Shown: positions 1 through 8,911 of the stretch, piece after piece | Layout: every line of letters begins with the position of its first letter | How positions within the stretch are numbered: position 1 is the stretch's first letter | Source: an uncultured archaeon | GTDB lineage: Archaea; Asgardarchaeota; Jordiarchaeia; Jordiarchaeales; Jordiarchaeaceae | Assembly (NCBI GenBank): GCA_964510585.1 | Contig: CAZECW010000088.1 | Coordinates: 1 to 9,246, forward strand | Reading direction: 5' to 3' | DNA length: 9,246 nt | Program-made: the position numbers and the translations under genes | The notes under the pieces: generated by a model | What the model was told of the DNA's origin: nothing | What the model saw: only the letters and a program-made list of their open reading frames with translations | Databases searched by the model: none

Positions 1-987
1 CACCCCCTCCTTAACAACCCCCCTCTCATAAGCTCTCAACCCCTCTATTTCAGATTCTGAAAAATTAAGGTTAGCAGCTAGTATTGGAACATCGCCGATT
101 TGAGAAACTAGACCCCTAATATCTGAGCTTCTGTCCTGAATTATCCACCTCGTGGTGCCAATAGCCACATTCCTAAGAACATCAGCCTTCGAAGCCCTAA
201 CCACAGACAAAACAGCAGTCATCTGAGTGCCACCAGCCATCAAAACGGGAACTCTGGAAGCCGCACCCATAACAAGACCCGAGAATGCAGCAATCATTGG
301 ATCACCAACAGAAGCAATAGCCCTAACCGGATCCCTTTTAAGGTCGCCGAAACCCACCCCCGCCGCCCTTAGCCCCTCCTCTGCAACCCGTATCTTAAGA
401 TTGTGGGGATTTACAGGCATACTGCTACTCACCTTTAACTTGGCATCCACCCCCATGGCAAGTAGAACTCCCAAAGCAGTAGTGGTTCCTCCAGGAATGC
501 TCTCCCCTATAACAAGATAATCAGCTGTCCTAGAAAAGTTGCTTCCCACCACCTCCGCTTTTCTAATAACCTCCTTTACATTTTTAACTGCCCTACCAGT
601 TCTGATATCCTCACCAGGCTCACCCCCGAGATTAATGAAGGGCGCATGAGGCTCAACTTTCAACCCCCCACTAACCACAAAAACCGGCACATCAGCTAGG
701 GTTAAGGCTGAGCGTGTTATCAGGGCCGGGGTTGGAACTCCATCCGGTGTAACAGGGATTCCATCTATGCATTTGCATTCTCCATAAAATAGGAGTTCGA
801 CGTCCGCTGCGGGTGTATAATCAGTGATTTCTGGATACTTTCCCGCCGCGGAAATTTCAGGTATTTTGGCGGTCTCAGTATTCCCAATAGTGCAGATGAA
901 TAAGGGCTCCTTATTCTCTATTTTACTCAGAAAAGTTCTTGCTTCCACTTCACAGTGGGCTACTAAAATATCTCTGTGTTTTCCCAT
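1..987 (-). CDS. cobT: Archaeal-type nicotinate-nucleotide:lower-base phosphoribosyltransferase (CobT, MJ1598/TIGR00303-like class); 3' end runs off the window
   Basis: Manual translation of the reverse strand from ATG at 987 gives 329 open codons to position 1: MGKHRDILVAHCEVEARTFLSKIENKEPLFICTIGNTETAKIPEISAAG...YTPAADVELL...PVTPDGVPTPALITR...VIGESIPGGTTTALGVL...VSSSMPVNPH...VGDPM...VLMAGGTQM...IGTTRWI...YERGVVKEGV. These motifs are typical of archaeal CobT. GAAGGT (1000-995) lies 7 nt upstream of the ATG. Confidence 0.93.
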   Translation of the reverse strand, partial: MGKHRDILVAHCEVEARTFLSKIENKEPLFICTIGNTETAKIPEISAAGKYPEITDYTPAADVELLFYGECKCIDGIPVTPDGVPTPALITRSALTLADVPVFVVSGGLKVEPHAPFINLGGEPGEDIRTGRAVKNVKEVIRKAEVVGSNFSRTADYLVIGESIPGGTTTALGVLLAMGVDAKLKVSSSMPVNPHNLKIRVAEEGLRAAGVGFGDLKRDPVRAIASVGDPMIAAFSGLVMGAASRVPVLMAGGTQMTAVLSVVRASKADVLRNVAIGTTRWIIQDRSSDIRGLVSQIGDVPILAANLNFSESEIEGLRAYERGVVKEGV

Positions 988-1032: not shown

Positions 1033-1040
1033 TTTATATA
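1033..1040 (+). promoter_or_regulatory. TATA-box-like element for the btuF-cob operon
   Basis: TTTATATA matches the archaeal TATA consensus. Standard spacing would put the transcription start near 1062-1064, upstream of the btuF RBS. Confidence 0.6.
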
Positions 1041-1075
1041 GGTTAAGTTATCCTCTGTAGGATAAATTATCCTAC
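1038..1075. promoter_or_regulatory. Two abutting 19-bp palindromic operator-like boxes (AGGWTA-N3-TATCCT cores)
   Basis: Box 1 is ATAGGTTAAGTTATCCTCT (1038-1056) and box 2 is GTAGGATAAATTATCCTAC (1057-1075); they are identical at 14/19 positions. Box 2 lies inside a perfect 10-1-10 inverted repeat, TGTAGGATAA-A-TTATCCTACA (1056-1076). Confidence 0.75.
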
Positions 1076-1082
1076 AATGGGA

Positions 1083-1116: not shown

Positions 1117-2205
1117 TTGGGAACCACTCTCAGAAGCAGGAAAGCCCTAGCAGCAATACTAATAGTGATAGTAGCAATTTCGGTGACTGGGTTATCAACC
1201 TATGCAGTTATAAACAACCAAAAATTCACTCAGCAAAGCTACCTACTCAGCCTGATACTGTTTCAACTAGGTCAACCCAGAATAGTATCATGCGCACCCA
1301 ACATAGACGAAATACTTTGCGGTTTAGACCTTGAAGAATACATAGTTGGCTGCGTAGACCATGACCCCTACGGAATGGGATACCTAATGGAAGATTATTA
1401 CCTGCCCAGAATTGTTGAACTAATATTGGCGGGAAAAATAAGCAATAAAATAAACTGGTGGTATCCCAGTGTGGAATCTGTGGTAACACTTAATCCCACA
1501 ATAGTACTCCTAGACTCAGGCGTTCCCAACCAAGTATCAATGTACTCCTCCCTTGTAAGCCAAGGCATACCCGCATTCTTAGTTCCCCAAGGTACGAGAA
1601 TTAGCCAAATAGAGGTATCCATTCTGCAGGTTGGCAGCTTGTTCAAAAGAGGCTCACTAGCTCAAGGCCTTGTTGATAAAATGGAAACAAAAATAAACAC
1701 CATCCAAGAAAACGTGACAGGTCAACCAGTACTCAAAGTACTAGTATGCGTGTGGATAGATTTTAGCCAAAACCAAGTGTACACCTGTGGAAATAACACT
1801 TTCCTTAGTGAAATCGTTCAGAAATCAGGTGGCCTGAACGTCTTCTATGACAACCTCCTATCATGGCCCGTAGTAACATTAGCTGAGGCTGCGGCGAAAA
1901 ATCCAGATAAAATAATTATCTTAGATCACTACGCATACTTGAACCCCTCAGAAACATACTCTAATATTAAGAATGATCCTAATCTTGGCAACACACTTGC
2001 TGCGCAAAATGATGAAATATACTTTGTTCAGGGGCAGGCAGAAAACTTGTTCTCAAGGCCGGGGCCGAGAGTTGCCGAGGGCGTTGAACTTCTGGCCAAA
2101 GTACTGTTTCCAGATTTATTCGGTGTGACTTTCTCTCCTCCCTATCCCTATATACTGAATACGGGAAATTATAAAGGGTACTTGGATTCATTTATACTAG
2201 AGTGA
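1117..2205 (+). CDS. btuF: Cobalamin/iron-complex ABC transporter substrate-binding protein (BtuF-like) with an N-terminal membrane anchor
   Basis: N-terminal basic plus hydrophobic segment (RSRKALAAILIVIVAISVTGL). Family motifs RIVSCAPNIDEIL, PSVESVVTLNPTIVL, EAAAKNPDKIII and LFSRPGPRVAEGVELLAK. The corrinoid assignment rests on gene context. Start placed at TTG 1117 because GAGGTGA includes the GTG at 1108, which is the alternative start. Confidence 0.85.
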   Translation: MGTTLRSRKALAAILIVIVAISVTGLSTYAVINNQKFTQQSYLLSLILFQLGQPRIVSCAPNIDEILCGLDLEEYIVGCVDHDPYGMGYLMEDYYLPRIVELILAGKISNKINWWYPSVESVVTLNPTIVLLDSGVPNQVSMYSSLVSQGIPAFLVPQGTRISQIEVSILQVGSLFKRGSLAQGLVDKMETKINTIQENVTGQPVLKVLVCVWIDFSQNQVYTCGNNTFLSEIVQKSGGLNVFYDNLLSWPVVTLAEAAAKNPDKIIILDHYAYLNPSETYSNIKNDPNLGNTLAAQNDEIYFVQGQAENLFSRPGPRVAEGVELLAKVLFPDLFGVTFSPPYPYILNTGNYKGYLDSFILE

Positions 2206-3326
2206 GGCGAACTATTTTGGTTAAAACTTTCTCTTCTCTTTTTTTTGTTGGCGCTCCGAATCTGGTTAGGCGCAAAATTTTTCTGCTAACTTTATTCGTT
2301 ACTGTAGGGTTGGCTATATTGGCGATATTGATACTTGCGTCTCTTGTTTTTGGGGCGCAGGAGGTTACCTTGGGCGATGTTTTTGCGTCTCTTAACAGAC
2401 TTTGGATTTTTGGGAGACCAATTCAAAATTATGGCGTTACATTGCCCAGCTATATTGATTGGAGCTTTGACATTATACTTTATCATTCGAGGATTCCTAG
2501 GACTTTTACTGCTATTCTTATTGGTGCGGGTCTTGCTGTTTCTGGAGCCATTATGCAGGCGCTTGTTAGGAATCCTCTTGTGGATCCGTATATTAGTGGT
2601 GTGTCGTCTGGGGCGGCTTTTGGGGCGGTGCTTATTTTGCTTACCTCTATTTTCTCTGGTTTTTTGGAAACTGTTTCTCTTCCTTTGGCGGCCTTTTTGG
2701 GTGGGCTTGGGGCGTTTGGAATAACTTTTATTATATATAGGAGTGCGGGTGAAACTCCTACAAGTTTTGTTTTGGGGGGAGTGATTGTTGGTATAGCTTT
2801 TTCTTCATTGACAACATTCTTCATTGTTACTTCTACGAGGGAGATTCATGGTGCTCTTTTCTGGCTTTTTGGAAGTATAGCTTATGTTACTTGGGATGTT
2901 GTATGGATTCTTTTGCCTGTGGTGGTAGTGATTGTTCTGGTGTCTTTGTTGTATGCTAGGGAATTTAATGTTCTTCTTTTGGGTGATGAGCAAGCGGCTC
3001 AGTTGGGTCTGAGGGTTAAGTGGTTTAAGAGGATTATGTTGATAGTTGCTGCGCTTCTTGCCAGTTTTTGTGTTGCGTTCACGGGGATTATAGGGTTTGT
3101 TGGTCTCGTTGTTCCTCACATGATTCGGTTGGCTCTGGGTAGTGATCATAGGCTTTTGCTTCCCTTATCAACGATTTTTGGTGCAAATCTTTTGCTCGTT
3201 GCGGATATTGTGGCTAGGGTTGTTATGAGACCTGCTGAGCTTCCCATAGGTATAATAACTTCATTTATTGGTGTGCCCTTCTTCGCATACCTACTTATTA
3301 GGAGAGGTAAAAGATATGCCATGTAG
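2202..3326 (+). CDS. btuC: Cobalamin/iron-complex ABC transporter permease (BtuC/FecCD family)
   Basis: Very hydrophobic. Motifs RIPRTFTAILIGAGLAVSGAIMQALVRNPLVDPYISGVSSGA, LLLGDEQAAQLG, GIIGFVGLVVPHMIR and ELPIGIITSFIGVPFF. GTG 2202 overlaps the btuF stop; TTG 2217 is an alternative start. Confidence 0.9.
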   Translation: MRRTILVKTFSSLFFVGAPNLVRRKIFLLTLFVTVGLAILAILILASLVFGAQEVTLGDVFASLNRLWIFGRPIQNYGVTLPSYIDWSFDIILYHSRIPRTFTAILIGAGLAVSGAIMQALVRNPLVDPYISGVSSGAAFGAVLILLTSIFSGFLETVSLPLAAFLGGLGAFGITFIIYRSAGETPTSFVLGGVIVGIAFSSLTTFFIVTSTREIHGALFWLFGSIAYVTWDVVWILLPVVVVIVLVSLLYAREFNVLLLGDEQAAQLGLRVKWFKRIMLIVAALLASFCVAFTGIIGFVGLVVPHMIRLALGSDHRLLLPLSTIFGANLLLVADIVARVVMRPAELPIGIITSFIGVPFFAYLLIRRGKRYAM

Positions 3327-4197
3327 TAGCGATGTAATCATTAGGGTTAAAGGCTTAGTGTACACTTATGATTCTGTTAGAGCTCTTGACGGTTTGACTT
3401 TTGAGGTTAACAGAGGTGAGTTTGTCGGTCTTGTTGGTCCTAATGGTTCTGGGAAAACTACTCTTATTAAGTGTTTGAGCAAATTGTATACTCCTCATGA
3501 GGGTAGTATAGAGTTGGATGGGCGTGATTTGAGGAAGTTGTCCCAATTGGAGGGCGCCAAAATATACGCCGTGGTGCCTTCAGAATTTACTATGGATATG
3601 AACATCTCAGTTGCGGACACTGTACTCTTGGGGAGGTATCCTTATCTGGAGGGTTTATGGTGGGAAAAGGAACGAGACGAAGAAATTGCTTTGGACGCTA
3701 TGGGAAAATTGAATGTTTCACATTTTGGGAATAGAAAACTTGGAGAATTAAGCAGTGGGGAAAAGCAGAGAGTCCTAATAGCTAAGGCTATAGCTCAGGA
3801 GGCGAAAGTACTTCTAATAGATGAACCTGTAGCTCACCTGGATTTGGGATACCAAATGGAAATTATGGAAATGTTGAGGAGTTTAGCTAGGGATGGCGTA
3901 ACAATTATTGCTGCGATGCATGAACTTAACCTTGCAGTCAGGTATTGCGATAAACTCATAGTACTTGATAAGGGCCGGGTTGTAGCTTGCGGCAAACCCA
4001 AAGATATAGTTACACAAAAGCTTATTGAGGATGTCTACGGAGTAAAATCAATCGTCCATGACGTTCCAGAAATAGGGCTGGTAATAATTCCCCTGTCGGG
4101 TTCCAATAATGGTGGTGTGTTTGATAAGAAAAATGGTAAGAAGGGAGCTGCTGAGCTTAGTAAGACCCAGACATGGAGGAGAGGTGTGGAAGCATAG
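3316..4197 (+). CDS. btuD: Cobalamin/iron-complex ABC transporter ATP-binding protein (BtuD/FecE family)
   Basis: Walker A GPNGSGKT, signature LSSGE, Walker B LLIDEP, H-loop AAMHE. Start placed at ATG 3316 with GAGGT (3304-3308) 7 nt upstream, rather than GTG 3268. Confidence 0.9.
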   Translation: MPCSSDVIIRVKGLVYTYDSVRALDGLTFEVNRGEFVGLVGPNGSGKTTLIKCLSKLYTPHEGSIELDGRDLRKLSQLEGAKIYAVVPSEFTMDMNISVADTVLLGRYPYLEGLWWEKERDEEIALDAMGKLNVSHFGNRKLGELSSGEKQRVLIAKAIAQEAKVLLIDEPVAHLDLGYQMEIMEMLRSLARDGVTIIAAMHELNLAVRYCDKLIVLDKGRVVACGKPKDIVTQKLIEDVYGVKSIVHDVPEIGLVIIPLSGSNNGGVFDKKNGKKGAAELSKTQTWRRGVEA

Positions 4198-5290
4198 TCC
4201 TCACCTGATAGATTTTAGCTGTAACTTGAACCCACTTGGGCCTCCTGAGGAAACTATCAAAATAATCCAGCAAAACTTGGATTACATTGTTAATTATCCT
4301 GATGACCAATGCACCCATTTGAAATCAAAATTGTCAGACTTTCTTAATGTACCTTTGGGGAACATAATCGTGGGTTGTGGTTCTACCGAGTTAATTAAAG
4401 CGTTTGCTGAAGCTTTCGTAAAGCCGAGTGGCCATGTAGTAGTCTGTTCCCCAACTTATGATGAGTATGCTTTTTACTGCCAATTTATGGGGGGAATCGT
4501 TGATAGAGTTCCTCTTAGGGAGAATAAGGAATTTTGCTTAGAGACGGAGTCTCTCTTTGAGTTGGTTGATGGTAGTACGAGGGCAGTTTTTCTATGTAAT
4601 CCAAATAATCCCACTAGCAGGTTTGAGAGCAAAAATAAAATTTTAGAGCTGGTGGAGGAGTGTGAAAGTAGGAATGTTTTGGTTTTTATTGATGAGGCGT
4701 TCATTGATTTTGTGAGGGAGGGGAAAAGCAACTCTTTTGTTTCTGAGGTGCAAAATCATGGTAATCTTTTCGTTTCACGCTCTTTGACCAAAATTTTCAG
4801 CATACCAGGCATTAGAGTTGGGTATGGGGTGGGTGGAGAAGAAATAATAAAATATATGGATAAGGCGCGTTTGTCATGGAATGTGGGGATACTTGAACAA
4901 GCCTTGGCATGTGGGCTGATTGGTGACTGTCATTCCTATTTGGAGAGAACAGTGAGTTTTGTTGAAACTGAAAAAAGGAGGATGTATGAGAAACTTTCCC
5001 ACATTTTTGGGTATCGGCCTGTTAGGCCGGATGCCAACTTTATTTTTGTTAAAATCAAGGAGTTGGGTGTCAACAGCACTGATTTCAAGAACATTATGTT
5101 GACTCACGGATTTCTCATAAGGGACTGCAGCTCTTTTGGTGAGGCTTTCTCAAATTATATTAGAATAGCCATAAAGAAAAGTGAGCAGAACTCAAGTCTC
5201 CTAGAAAAGTTAAAAGCGGTTTCCGAGGAGATACTGTCGAGTTGCAGAAAAGAATTTGAAGCACCAGAAAAGTCCATTAGTAAGTGTTGA
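4121..5290 (+). CDS. cobD: L-threonine-O-3-phosphate decarboxylase (PLP-dependent, CobD)
   Basis: Motifs HGG, DFSCNLNPLG, YPD, GCGSTELI, LCNPNNPT, IDEAFIDF, SRSLTKIFSIPGIRVGY (PLP lysine), RDCSSF and YIRIA; adjacent to cbiB. The start is uncertain: ATG 4109, TTG 4121 (after TGGTG) or ATG 4133. Confidence 0.88.
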   Translation: MIRKMVRRELLSLVRPRHGGEVWKHSPHLIDFSCNLNPLGPPEETIKIIQQNLDYIVNYPDDQCTHLKSKLSDFLNVPLGNIIVGCGSTELIKAFAEAFVKPSGHVVVCSPTYDEYAFYCQFMGGIVDRVPLRENKEFCLETESLFELVDGSTRAVFLCNPNNPTSRFESKNKILELVEECESRNVLVFIDEAFIDFVREGKSNSFVSEVQNHGNLFVSRSLTKIFSIPGIRVGYGVGGEEIIKYMDKARLSWNVGILEQALACGLIGDCHSYLERTVSFVETEKRRMYEKLSHIFGYRPVRPDANFIFVKIKELGVNSTDFKNIMLTHGFLIRDCSSFGEAFSNYIRIAIKKSEQNSSLLEKLKAVSEEILSSCRKEFEAPEKSISKC

Positions 5291-5322
5291 TTCAATTCTT
5301 AAAAGGTTTCTGAGGTTTCCCG

Positions 5323-6348
5323 ATGGAACTAGTGAATCTCGTCTATCCTCTCGGAATCATTGTGATTGCTTTAACTATTGACTTTTTACTCGGAGAGCCA
5401 CCCAGAAAAATTCATCCCACAATATGGATGGGGCGGCTCATCTCACTAATCGACGGGAGAATACCGCGGGGAAAGCCTACCCGAGAAAAAATTTTGGGCG
5501 TTTTTCTCGCCATTTTCACCATCTCCATTTTTCTGATTTCTACCTTGCTGGTGTTGACCCTAGTCAGATTTATGTGGGGCAAAATTGCTTGGGTGCTTGT
5601 CGCCTCCTTCATTTTTAAATCAACCTTTGCCATAAAAGATATGGAGAGGCATGCAACTCCTATAATTCATGAGCTCGTTAATGGAAATCTTCCCGGTGCT
5701 CGGGAGCAGGTTTCCCGCATAGTGGGCCGGGATGTGACCAACCTAGATGAACCACACATCTTATCTGCTACTGTGGAGAGCGTCTCTGAAAGTATTGTGG
5801 ACGGCTTTTTTTCTCCATTTCTATTTTTCGCCTTTTTGGGTGTTCCTGGCGCAATTTTTTTCCGCTCAATAAACACCCTAGACTCAATGGTAGGCTATAA
5901 GACTGAGAAATACAAGAATGTTGGTTGGTTTTCAGCACGCCTCGATGATTTTGCAAACTGGTTCCCTGCAAGAGTCTCCCTTCCCTTCATAGCGCTAGCC
6001 TCAAAGTTGTTGGGTGCAGACTGGAGGAGTTGCCTAAAGGTAGCTTTGAGGGATCATAGGAAAACGAAGAGTCCTAATGGAGGGTGGCCAATGGCAGCTA
6101 TGGCTGGAGCTCTCCATGTACGTCTCGAAAAGATAGGTTACCACGTATTGGGTGAGGAGTACCCATTTCCCAGATTTAGAGAAACAGAAAAGGCTGTTAA
6201 AATAATGAAAGTCTCCTGTTTGCTCTTTACGCTAACCCTATCGCCCGTAGCTATATTTTTGGGAATTTTTGTACAGGGGCTGATTGAGAATTTACTCATA
6301 AAACTCTTAACAGATGCGTTAGGTTGGGGTCTATGTTGCCTGATATAA
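5323..6348 (+). CDS. cbiB: Adenosylcobinamide-phosphate synthase CbiB
   Basis: Motifs DFLLGEP..HPTIWMG, VESVSESIVDG, RSINTLDSMVGYK, GWFSARLDDFANWFPARV and SPNGGWPMAAMAGAL. Membrane-protein profile. TGAGGT lies at 5311-5316. Confidence 0.95.
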   Translation: MELVNLVYPLGIIVIALTIDFLLGEPPRKIHPTIWMGRLISLIDGRIPRGKPTREKILGVFLAIFTISIFLISTLLVLTLVRFMWGKIAWVLVASFIFKSTFAIKDMERHATPIIHELVNGNLPGAREQVSRIVGRDVTNLDEPHILSATVESVSESIVDGFFSPFLFFAFLGVPGAIFFRSINTLDSMVGYKTEKYKNVGWFSARLDDFANWFPARVSLPFIALASKLLGADWRSCLKVALRDHRKTKSPNGGWPMAAMAGALHVRLEKIGYHVLGEEYPFPRFRETEKAVKIMKVSCLLFTLTLSPVAIFLGIFVQGLIENLLIKLLTDALGWGLCCLI

Positions 6349-7436
6349 ATGTGGAATTAATTGAATCAAGTAAAGGCTGCTGTGCGCTTGTGAGTTTACC
6401 TAAAACCTTTAGGGCTGTGAGTTCCGCCCCACTGGGATTCGGCATAATAAGTGTGGATAAGATTCTCATTCTTCAAGTTACCAGGGACTATGATTCGGAG
6501 CGGCCAGAGGACGAACTCCAAGACCTAATTGATGATTTAAACCTTGGAAAAAACACTGTGGGACTAATGACCGCCGCGGAAGTGAAAAAGGTATTAACAG
6601 TAACTCATCGATCATTAGATGATTTACAGATAACCGTTGTTGCCACCGCTGGTGCTTCAAACGCCCTAATAGCGGGGGAGGATCCCTATAAAAAAGAGAG
6701 TGAGAGGAAGCATTCTGGAACTATTAACATTATTGCTTTAGTCAATAAAGCATTGACCGACGGGGCCTTAGTAAATGCGGTTATTACTGCAACTGAGGCG
6801 AAGAGTGTAGCTCTGAGGAACCTTGGTTTTGCAGCGAGCGGAACAACCACAGACAGCATAGTAATTGCCTGTCCCCCCGATGGAGGAAAGCTGAGATACG
6901 CTGGGACAGCTACTGATGTGGGGATTCTTTTATCCCGAGCAGTTAAACAAGCGGTTATAGAATCGTTGACAAAAGCTGGAGAAGCGAAAAGCAGAAATTT
7001 TATGGACAGACTCTGCGAGCGTGGCATAACAATGGAAAATTTGTTGGATGCCGCTATGGAACTCCAAATTCCAGATACTGAACACAGCACCGAAGAAATA
7101 AGGAAATTTTTTGTGGAGGAGATTAACAGGTTAACAGGTGATGTAAACATTAACTCCCTAGTTTGCTCAGCCATGTTTCTTGAGGACCTCGGTTCAAGCG
7201 GGGGAATTTATGGACTCAGCGTAGACGACTTCAAAAAGGATCCGGTTCATATCTTGGCGGATGAAATCCTAGGAATGGCCATCGCGGAGTACATCGCTGG
7301 AACAAAGGGCCTTTTAAACTACGTCCGATACGACAGGAAGAAGCCGGGCATAATTGCCACCCTGGGACCTTTTCTGGACGATGTTGTAGCTTCTCTGGTG
7401 GGAGGAATCATGTCAAGTATCTACTCAAAACTCTAA
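6333..7436 (+). CDS. cbiS: Bifunctional adenosylcobinamide amidohydrolase (CbiZ) / alpha-ribazole-phosphate phosphatase (archaeal CobZ) fusion, CbiS-like
   Basis: The N-terminal domain to ~6990 has CbiZ motifs GLMTAA, TAGASN, GTINI, ATEAK and GTTTDS. The C-terminal ~145 aa has archaeal CobZ-type motifs ADEILGMAIAEYIAG, YVRYDRKKPG and LGPFLDD. ATG 6333 is preferred over TTG 6324. Confidence 0.85.
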   Translation: MLPDINVELIESSKGCCALVSLPKTFRAVSSAPLGFGIISVDKILILQVTRDYDSERPEDELQDLIDDLNLGKNTVGLMTAAEVKKVLTVTHRSLDDLQITVVATAGASNALIAGEDPYKKESERKHSGTINIIALVNKALTDGALVNAVITATEAKSVALRNLGFAASGTTTDSIVIACPPDGGKLRYAGTATDVGILLSRAVKQAVIESLTKAGEAKSRNFMDRLCERGITMENLLDAAMELQIPDTEHSTEEIRKFFVEEINRLTGDVNINSLVCSAMFLEDLGSSGGIYGLSVDDFKKDPVHILADEILGMAIAEYIAGTKGLLNYVRYDRKKPGIIATLGPFLDDVVASLVGGIMSSIYSKL

Positions 7437-7437
7437 A

Positions 7438-8244
7438 ATGGAGCATGTAGAAATGGGGGCTATAGACGGCTTAAAAACACTAGTAGCCATGTTTACCGTA
7501 ATTCCCGTTAGGAAGAGCCACTTCTCTGAGGAGACTTCAGAGTATTTGCCCCTAACCATCATTATAGGTGCCCTTTATGGAGTTTTTGCTGGAACAGTCT
7601 ACTCTGGATTGGCGCTTATACTTCCTACTTTCGCCTCGGCTGCAATTATGCTTCTAACCGTATATTTACTGAACGGCTTTTTCCATGTAGACGGGCTCAT
7701 AGATTTTGGAGATGGAATCGCAGCATTTGGAGACAAGCAGAAGAAGCTAAGCGCCATGAAGGATGTCCGAGTGGGAGCTGGAGGTCTAATCCTTGCACTT
7801 CTAACAACAATAGCAACGGTGTCACTCTACAGCGTATTACCATATGTTCAACTATTCCTATTCGTCTTTGCGATAGAGGTTTTGTGCAAAAATTCCCTAC
7901 TGGCGTGCGCCACTCTCGGTAAGCCCCACGAGTCCGGAATAGGCAAACAATTCGTAGAGGGGATGAACAAGAAAAGGCTTTTAGCATCAACCCTACTGAC
8001 ATTAGCATTCTTAATCCTCATAATGTTCTCCTACAATTATTTTCTCCACCTCAGTATAACCTGCGAAGTAAAAATTTTCCTCCTATTCTCACCCGTACTA
8101 TCCCTTATTTCTGGGGCCTTCATTGCTGTTCTCTCCAACAGGATCTTTGGCTGTGTCACTGGTGATGTACTGGGCGCTTCACACGAGATTTCCAGACTCA
8201 TTTTACTAGCATTAATAGTGGCGGTGATTTCACTATATGCTTAG
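7438..8244 (+). CDS. cobS: Adenosylcobinamide-GDP ribazoletransferase (cobamide synthase) CobS
   Basis: Multi-TM protein with FTVIP, GFFHVDGLIDFGDG, AMKDVRVGAGG and FGCVTGDVLGAS. ATG 7453 is an alternative start. Confidence 0.93.
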   Translation: MEHVEMGAIDGLKTLVAMFTVIPVRKSHFSEETSEYLPLTIIIGALYGVFAGTVYSGLALILPTFASAAIMLLTVYLLNGFFHVDGLIDFGDGIAAFGDKQKKLSAMKDVRVGAGGLILALLTTIATVSLYSVLPYVQLFLFVFAIEVLCKNSLLACATLGKPHESGIGKQFVEGMNKKRLLASTLLTLAFLILIMFSYNYFLHLSITCEVKIFLLFSPVLSLISGAFIAVLSNRIFGCVTGDVLGASHEISRLILLALIVAVISLYA

Positions 8245-8911
8245 GATTGATGGTCTCATTATGGCTGGGGGAAGAAGCTTAAGAATTAAAGAACTTGGGG
8301 AAAAACCAATGATACGCCTAAACGGGCGCCCCCTGATAGACTATGTGTTAAAGGCAATGAGCGAGTCGAAACTCATCAAGAGCATCCACGTAGCAGTAAG
8401 TTCACACACAAAAAACACCACAGATTACCTAAAAAGGGTTAAGAAATACCATTTTCAAATAGTTCAAACTCCCGGAGCAGGCTACATAGAAGACCTACGA
8501 TACGCCATTAATCTTTCTGGAATGTCTGATGTGCTTGTTTGCCCCGCCGACACCCCATTCCTCAGGGGAGACCTATTAGACCTAGTGGTGAAGGAGTTCT
8601 TCAGAGTTGGTAAACCATCACTTGTAACCGTGGTTCCCCTAGAAATGGTACAAAGTTTGGGTCTAGGACCCACAACAGTAATGAAAATAGATGAATTGGA
8701 CATGGTGCCCACAGGGGTAAACGTGGTTAAAGGAGAAAAACTAGTCACTGGAGCAACTCTTGATGAGAGCTACTTCAAAGTAAGCCGCAAAGAATTCGCC
8801 ATTAACATAAATAGCAGGAGAGACCTAAAAATCGCCGAAAAAATACTCAAAAATCGCCCAAAAAAATTTCAACCCACAAGATTTATGAGTCATTTTAAAT
8901 CCACTCCTTAA
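8237..8911 (+). CDS. cobY: GTP:adenosylcobinamide-phosphate guanylyltransferase CobY
   Basis: Nucleotidyltransferase motifs LIMAGG..R, EKPMIRLNGRPLIDYV, GAGYIEDL, ADTPFL and ININSRRDLKIAE. Lies beside cobS; GGTGA at 8223-8227. Confidence 0.9.
   Translation: MLRIDGLIMAGGRSLRIKELGEKPMIRLNGRPLIDYVLKAMSESKLIKSIHVAVSSHTKNTTDYLKRVKKYHFQIVQTPGAGYIEDLRYAINLSGMSDVLVCPADTPFLRGDLLDLVVKEFFRVGKPSLVTVVPLEMVQSLGLGPTTVMKIDELDMVPTGVNVVKGEKLVTGATLDESYFKVSRKEFAININSRRDLKIAEKILKNRPKKFQPTRFMSHFKSTP

Follow-up and report, generated by a model that had tools for sequence, protein, structure and literature searches.

In bacteria, regulons under the cobalamin riboswitch (RF00174) combine corrinoid uptake systems of the btuFCD or energy-coupling factor (ECF) type with genes of nucleotide-loop assembly and salvage, presumably in a feedback by corrinoid. 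To our knowledge archaea lack B12 riboswitches, and their control of cobamide uptake and salvage is essentially undescribed. For some archaea, Rodionov et al. (J Biol Chem, 2003) reportedly predicted a "CBL-box", a DNA palindrome which precedes B12 genes and takes the place of riboswitches, as the site of a hypothetical B12 regulator. That work predates the Asgard genomes and reportedly named no protein as the regulator; the boxes described below may be of the CBL type. The stretch analysed in the present study (the window) is an entire 9.2-kb contig (CAZECW010000088.1) of a metagenome-assembled genome (MAG; 3.78 Mb, 96% complete) of the Jordarchaeia, an Asgard group. The sequencing runs recorded as containing it are hot-spring metagenome DNA, with none of RNA among them. 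In the 129-bp spacer (988-1116) between cobT and the divergently transcribed btuF operon it carries two palindromic boxes, which share their kind of targets with the bacterial riboswitch regulons but consist of promoter DNA predicted to be read by a protein rather than of leader RNA. We consider it probable that these boxes are the DNA operators of a protein-based corrinoid (B12) regulon across the Asgard archaea, with a winged helix-turn-helix (wHTH) protein carrying a DUF4443 domain as the likeliest binder and repression as the likeliest action. The system thus appears to be a functional analogue of the bacterial B12 riboswitch regulon and, mechanistically, an ordinary one-component operator/regulator pair.

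The two boxes (Table 1) lie within the 19-mers ATAGGTTAAGTTATCCTCT (1038-1056) and GTAGGATAAATTATCCTAC (1057-1075), which agree in 14 of 19 positions; the original prediction had described these abutting repeats correctly apart from their end, which is 1075 and not 1076. A repeat search detected them as a direct repeat (1039-1054 and 1058-1073, 88%, spacing 19) and, as had also been predicted, placed the second box within a perfect 10-1-10 inverted repeat (1056-1065 and 1067-1076), and the overlap between the first box and a TATA-like element was confirmed as well. With up to two mismatches allowed, TAGGWTAANTTATCCT gave four strand-matches in the window compared with 0.10 expected, a number reached in none of 200 shuffles. 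Perfect 10-1-10 palindromes occur six times in the whole genome, about 3.6 being expected, so that a lone palindrome of this kind is not rare and the case rests on conservation instead.

Among the six genomes of the genus the BtuF proteins share only 52-82% identity; the block from TTTATATA to TTTAAAAA is nevertheless kept, and the remaining spacer drifts. From ACC.TCA.ATTTATATAGG across box 2 as far as TTTAAA, the genomes differ only at the central base of box 2 and in the left half of box 1, which reads AGGTTAA, AGGTCAA or AGGACGA; the right half of box 1 is TTATCCT throughout the genus. A second family of the same order has two boxes upstream of btuF in a mirrored layout, a lokiarchaeial contig carries a box in its btuF/cobT divergon, and the relatives from Odinarchaeota and Baldrarchaeum (BtuF 34-39% identical) have one perfect box upstream of btuF. 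The footprinting of cobT-btuF spacers that had been suggested as a check therefore found the boxes retained in the genus, the second family, Odinarchaeota and Baldrarchaeum, and it was the core AGGWTA-N3-TAWCCT, as originally proposed, that emerged as the conserved unit.

On the Odinarchaeota contig one box precedes the operon btuFCD-cobD-cbiB-cbiZ-cobS-cobY, and the convergent cobT at the far end of this operon has its own. Because the btuF operon and cobT are each provided with a separate box there, the tandem of the Jordarchaeia is best read as two single-box promoters that have been brought back to back. Two further observations concern the same contig. The boxed btuF operon is closely preceded by a nadC gene (L199:3494-4363) for quinolinate phosphoribosyltransferase, which makes the nicotinate mononucleotide (NaMN) for CobT, and a gene similar to asparagine synthase together with one for a Dph6/PAB0415-like ATP pyrophosphatase shares the cobT box divergently (L199:13688-15308).

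The exact 17-mer TAGGATAANTTATCCTA was found in 30 of 400 Asgard genomes, representing 19 of 85 genera, and nearly all of these sites are intergenic; the backward control gave none. In a wide scan of 185,579 species (596 Gb) the 17-mer yielded 106 stretches, close to the approximately 140 estimated by chance. Of the 80 records listed, about a third belong to Asgard archaea, and B12-specific neighbours were present only at loci from archaeal records and at none from bacteria-titled records among the matches listed. Clustering of the flanking genes returned btuF/btuC (8 loci), cobT, corrinoid proteins (B12-binding and B12-binding_2 domains) accompanied by a URO-D-type methyltransferase (5 loci), and an ECF-S-like membrane protein of about 200 aa with five to seven transmembrane segments, followed by membrane-anchored DUF4430 proteins (at least 4 loci). 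Palindromes with half-sites of the form GGAT(A/T)A ... T(A/T)ATCC thus occur at promoters of genes for corrinoid uptake and salvage. In several loci of Asgard family f7, one of them titled Thorarchaeota, an exact box precedes a gene of 269-280 aa (L047:1501, L048:1501, L129:2681, L151:3066), which encodes a UbiE-like S-adenosylmethionine-dependent methyltransferase in the one copy scanned and is followed by a 139-aa gene in two loci; as a speculation, these may be new B12-linked genes, possibly involved in lower-ligand modification.

The source genome contains only three strong boxes. The scan proposed in the original prediction recovered the two at cobT/btuF, and in addition a third on contig C216 (15229-15243; L015:6229-6243), where a link to B12 is not evident: it adjoins an open reading frame (ORF) of 64 aa, consisting of two similar helical halves without a Pfam family, followed by genes for a molybdopterin oxidoreductase and a 4Fe-4S subunit. 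All six congeneric genomes have kept this third box, at whose far edge the homology stops exactly. Weaker matches in the source genome (one or two mismatches; 12 of 30 intergenic) were rejected as noise, their flanking genes (thiolase, PHP-domain protein, HerA-like, AIR-synthase-like, POR subunit, major facilitator superfamily transporter) having no visible link to B12. On contig C32 the source genome has an orthologue (77% identity) of the corrinoid protein that is box-linked in the congeners, but this gene has no box.

The source genome encodes 28 ORFs with a B12-binding domain, of which about sixteen are corrinoid proteins of 210-240 aa; the larger ones (about 400-560 aa) are possible B12-dependent radical-SAM enzymes, judged by their length only. 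As CbiC and CbiD went undetected at 96% completeness, the organism is probably a corrin-ring auxotroph living on salvaged corrinoids. Given these 28 ORFs and the lack of detectable corrin-ring genes, the cobamide supply line under this promoter is probably the only one that the organism has.

A cobalamin riboswitch was not found in the window by an Rfam search at E-values up to 1, nor did RF00174 match anywhere in the source genome, seven bacterial controls being recognised; the spacer, moreover, is too short for one, as had been stated. Conservation, regulon content and the lack of RF00174 together support the earlier proposal of an operator for a dimeric protein which replaces a riboswitch and couples uptake to nucleotide-loop assembly, the binding itself being predicted.

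From cobT to btuF the spacer holds TTTATATA, box 1, box 2, TTTAAAAA and a GAGGTG motif (1105-1110). In the direction of btuF, TTTATATA precedes box 2 by 17 nt, and in the direction of cobT it immediately follows box 1; TTTAAAAA begins 9 nt past the core of box 2, leaving 26 nt to the start codon of btuF. The single-box btuF promoters of Odinarchaeota and Baldrarchaeum have a TATA-like element 14 and 19 nt upstream of the box, and then a Shine-Dalgarno sequence and the start codon; in Archaeoglobi only 3 nt separate the TATA element from the start of the box. A box that lies over the transcription start, downstream of the TATA element, occupies the classical position of an archaeal repressor. 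Since box 2 is situated 17 nt past TTTATATA, similar to the arrangement in Odinarchaeota and Baldrarchaeum, it should cover the presumed transcription start of btuF.

Two layouts of the spacer are possible. The promoters may be face to face with both transcription starts under the boxes, which would result in pure repression, or they may be back to back with the boxes at or upstream of the TFB recognition element (BRE), in which case occlusion of TFB or activation would be expected. On the conserved side of the C216 locus, read on the minus strand, 8 nt separate the box from TATATAAAT, after which about 56 nt with a GGGAGGG motif lead to the ATG; an CTATATAAAT element follows the box there and also directly follows box 1 on the cobT side. 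As the C216 box stands in an activator-like position, the regulatory sign may differ between promoters. A dual mode similar to that of SurR and TrmBL1 of the Thermococcales, which also act from sites on both sides of the TATA element, is a live possibility: boxes occur both downstream of TATA (btuF of Odinarchaeota, Baldrarchaeum and Archaeoglobi) and upstream of it (C216). The protein family, the motif and the effector would be different, and the dual action is suggested here by geometry alone.

In the mechanism that we propose, each box, a palindrome of 15-17 bp of the form (T)AGGATAA-N-TTATCCT(A), would be bound by one dimer of a winged-helix regulator. With plentiful corrinoid this regulator would repress, box 2 lying over the transcription start of btuF and box 1 over the TATA/BRE region. 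Corrinoid-dependent repression is favoured because feedback control of an uptake and salvage operon makes functional sense, and we hold the chances for and against it to be equal.

The likeliest binder is the product of the single wHTH-DUF4443 (PH0730-like) gene of the source genome (G000:C149:15022-15306, 84.5 bits; L169:1180-1815, plus strand, 211 aa), whose family is present as a single copy in 292 of the 400 Asgard genomes and also occurs in Sulfolobus acidocaldarius. Its structural model (pLDDT 96.5) combines a winged helix with a C-terminal GAD-like alpha/beta domain, which might sense the corrinoid. The only full-length match in the PDB is PH0730 of Pyrococcus horikoshii (2p8t; E 5.7e-17; TM-score 0.70/0.80), a structural-genomics "hypothetical protein" with the Pfam families PH0730-like_N and DUF4443; in the structure search the wHTH resembles those of the DtxR family, CggR, BirA and NiaR. 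A literature search revealed no function, ligand or DNA site for PH0730 or DUF4443 and nothing on an Asgard B12 operator. A census of Pyrococcus furiosus names PH0730-type proteins only as a transcription factor family (PMC6316755).

What points to this family is its location. In "Ca. Asgardarchaeum abyssi" a gene with a wHTH (CggR_N / PH0730-like_N) and DUF4443 is found directly upstream of a box-controlled pair of ECF-S-like and DUF4430 genes, and a DUF4443 gene, a GGAT(A/T)A-N3-T(A/T)ATCC palindrome and corrinoid-transport genes occur together in at least nine independent archaeal lineages. These span Asgard, Archaeoglobi and DPANN, and the common spacer often measures about 60-200 bp, or the regulator gene belongs to the same operon. 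In three genomes of Asgard family f13 the site TTGGATAA-N-TTATCC(A/G)A separates the regulator gene from divergent ECF-S-like/DUF4430 genes. In a Njordarchaeum (P0014) TTGGATAAATTGTCCAA lies in the spacer between an ECF-S-like/DUF4430 operon and the operon that holds the regulator gene, and in a low-GC archaeon (P0039) CTGGATAAATTATCCA occupies a 64-nt spacer common to the regulator gene and an ECF-S/DUF4430 operon. The site AGCTGGATAAGTTATCCAGCT heads an operon ending in the regulator gene (P0046), whereas in Archaeoglobi CTGGATAACATGTCCAG stands just after the TATA element of a btuF-btuC-btuD-DUF4443 operon divergent from a ribonucleotide reductase gene. Furthermore, the regulator gene is divergent from an ECF-S gene at TAGGTTATACTAACCTA (P0060) and from a gene with a weak ECF-transporter match at TTGGATTATCCATCCAA (P0030), and TTGGATATAATATCCAA is located 3' of the regulator gene before the next gene (P0112). 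The exact CTGGATAA-N-TTATCCAG has a DUF4443 gene within 2.5 kb in a single-amplified genome of Aenigmatarchaeota and at one more locus. A wide search with the variant CTGGATAANTTATCCAG, in which chance matches in bacteria predominated and which was used only as a contrast, contributed three more DUF4443-adjacent sites; two further sampled DUF4443 contexts (P0085, P0096) did not show such an arrangement. In the low-GC archaeon a second site, CCTGGATAAATTATCCAGA (L211:7847 / L212:5421), was noted; it is flanked by genes for a 755-aa beta-propeller protein and a 161-aa protein of no Pfam family and follows the DUF4443 gene at a distance of 2.3 kb.

Several findings weigh against this assignment. 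Two Odinarchaeota MAGs, G026 (84% complete) and G043 (82%), have two perfect boxes each and no DUF4443 even at E = 10, and a nominal congener of these has a DUF4443 gene but no core box. DUF4443 is present in 27 of the 30 box-positive genomes compared with 73% of all genomes, hence its presence alone does not discriminate. In the source genus and in Lokiarchaeia the gene is not located near any box and has an FrhB-like partner instead: in Jordarchaeia it is divergent from a gene of about 325 aa for an FrhB/FpoF-like (F420-dependent, 4Fe-4S) protein (L169:3-977, minus strand), with no box in the spacer. The DUF4443 alignment shows neither a conserved His nor a known corrinoid-binding motif. Concerning the regulon as a whole, the molybdenum oxidoreductase operon on C216 and the UbiE-like methyltransferases of Thorarchaeota lack an obvious link to B12, and the position of the box relative to TATA is not uniform, the C216 box lying 8 nt upstream of the TATA element of a minus-strand gene. 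As a separate observation, many Lokiarchaeia (L181-L198) have a gene of about 329 aa beside DUF4443 at the place of the FrhB-like gene, matched by position and length only.

The rival that survives best, which we nevertheless consider unlikely, is that the boxes are B12-regulon operators read by another transcription factor, e.g. of the Lrp/AsnC, TrmB or MarR type, and that DUF4443 is a mere frequent neighbour of the transporters or a member of the regulon. The two Odinarchaeota MAGs with boxes but without DUF4443 and the weak correlation of presence are in accordance with this explanation. In addition, the 15-bp layout abcde-WWNWW-edcba is similar to Lrp-family sites, and in Jord and Thor loci a stand-alone gene resembling the Lrp/AsnC ligand domain (by reading of the sequence only) is present at a distance of 2-3 kb from the box. 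However, the grouping of regulator gene, palindrome and transporter in at least nine lineages speaks against it, and clustering of the box-flanking ORFs disclosed no other recurrent DNA-binding family, HxlR standing beside a box in only one pair of related genomes. This HxlR gene, seen in two lokiarchaeial genomes, was judged to be a local regulator of its own divergent gene. A CarH-type regulator (MerR and B12-binding domain) was likewise rejected, because none of the 28 ORFs with a B12-binding domain looked like one by its length, domain fusions not having been searched directly.

Far less probable is the binder favoured at the outset, a DtxR/IdeR-type metal (Co/Fe/Mn) repressor occupying both boxes and tying B12 salvage to the metal status of the cell. 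The resemblance to DtxR, IdeR and MDR1 systems extends to a dimeric winged-helix protein (predicted here), tandem palindromes over an archaeal promoter, an AGG...CCT outer half-site and the 6-3-6 geometry. Furthermore, one of the DUF4443-linked spacers reads TAGGTTATACTAACCTA, and the DUF4443 wHTH itself bears a weak likeness to DtxR (E 0.007 for Pfam Fe_dep_repress; 35% identity to DR2539 over 77 columns in Foldseek), although the candidate binder has its GAD-like DUF4443 domain in place of the metal-binding and dimerisation domain of DtxR. The listing of DtxR-family genes that had been called for did reveal one full DtxR homologue in the source genome, on contig C63 (PF01325, PF02742 and FeoA; L001:1027-1707), but this gene lies beside feoB (L001:2-1012) with operators of its own, and a second match to PF01325, on C51, is weak. 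The DtxR-feoB promoter (L001:1735-1790, minus strand) contains TTTAAATA and two boxes of the classic iron type, TTTAGGGTACCCTAAA and TTTAGGAGAGCCTAAA. These belong to the class TTTAGG-N4-CCTAAA, i.e. AGG-N4-CCT, in contrast to AGG-N9-CCT in the cobT/btuF boxes, and the DtxR-feoB promoter of an Odinarchaeota genome has TTAGGTTTACCTAA (L340:780-800), which is of the same type. TTTAGGGTACCCTAAA, TTTAGGAGAGCCTAAA and TTAGGTTTACCTAA probably represent the true DtxR/IdeR operator of the Asgard archaea. Neither the source genome nor the 400 Asgard genomes yielded a box at feo, mnt or znu genes; the outcome which would have recast the boxes as an ordinary iron regulon, matches at iron genes only, did not occur, and the annotated targets are corrinoid-related instead of genes for Fe or Mn.

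Least credible is that the palindromes work as hairpins in the RNA leaders of btuF or cobT (attenuator, processing site or protein-binding stem): the stretch 1030-1120 does fold to -24.4 kcal/mol (z = -3.6 versus shuffles) and box 2 would be partly transcribed if TTTATATA is the TATA element of btuF, but such a role is very unlikely because it is the sequence of the GGATAA/TTATCC arms and not merely their pairing that is conserved and because boxes lie upstream of the TATA element at C216, where homology ends at the box edge, and directly upstream of TATA-like elements at several other promoters, where they would not be transcribed. No Rfam family was matched.

Taking the regulator-palindrome-transporter groupings and the Odinarchaeota MAGs into account, we lean towards the DUF4443 protein as the protein that binds the boxes; for a corrinoid as its effector we consider the case evenly poised. 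The evidence hence favours the second option of the original prediction, a corrinoid-sensing factor, now with a candidate. As a wider and more tentative proposal, wHTH-DUF4443 could be a direct cobamide-sensing transcription factor, an archaeal counterpart of the B12 riboswitch common to Asgard, Archaeoglobi, DPANN and other archaea. It would act in a dual mode, repressing where the box lies between the TATA element and the transcription start and activating where the box is upstream of TATA, as at the operon of the small ORF and the molybdenum oxidoreductase on C216. The Asgard-wide variant AGGATAA-N-TTATCCT, the fused two-promoter layout and the counter-example of the Odinarchaeota are added by the present analysis.

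The remaining features of the window are compiled in Table 1. The operon opposite to cobT has the order btuF-btuC-btuD-cobD-cbiB-cbiZ-PgpA-cobS-cobY, its nucleotide-loop and salvage genes spanning 4109..8911. The 3' end of cobT lies beyond the contig edge, and its likely start is the ATG at 987, with GAAGGT before it. For btuF the start is the TTG at 1117, preceded by the GAGGTG motif, and the aligned position is an ATG in all five congeners; the GTG at 1108, at which the ORF finder had begun the gene, is probably not the true start. The C-terminal PgpA-like domain fused to CbiZ (cobinamide amidohydrolase) is possibly an alpha-ribazole-phosphate phosphatase of the CobZ type.

Table 1. Predicted genes and promoter elements in the 9.2-kb window
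Feature	Position	Strand	Remarks
cobT, archaeal-type (NaMN-dependent phosphoribosyltransferase)	1..987	-	TIGR00303 384 bits vs cut-off 240; Pfam DBI_PRT weak
TATA-like TTTATATA (TATATAAA on minus strand)	1033..1040		presumed promoter element
Box 1, TAGGTTAAGTTATCCT	1039..1054		degenerate copy of the putative operator; overlaps TATA-like element
Box 2, TAGGATAAATTATCCTA	1058..1074		consensus copy of the putative operator; core of perfect 10-1-10 palindrome 1056-1076
Second conserved TATA-like TTTAAAAA	1083..1090		presumed promoter element
btuF-like periplasmic corrinoid-binding protein	1117..2205	+	Pfam Peripla_BP_2; alignment
btuC (FecCD permease)	2202-3326	+	
btuD (ABC ATPase), ORF	3268-4197	+	
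cobD-type aminotransferase	4109-5290	+	
cbiB	5323-6348	+	
cbiZ fused to PgpA/CobZ-like domain	6324-7436	+	
cobS	7438-8244	+	
cobY-like nucleotidyltransferase	8237-8911	+	
Nitroreductase-family gene, cut by contig end	8948..9244	+	operon membership uncertain

With the boxes, a sharply defined operator is now accompanied by one structurally solved, functionally blank family (PH0730/DUF4443) as its likely reader. The operator motif may be used to annotate B12 regulons, including new corrinoid transporters and B12-linked enzymes, in uncultured archaea.

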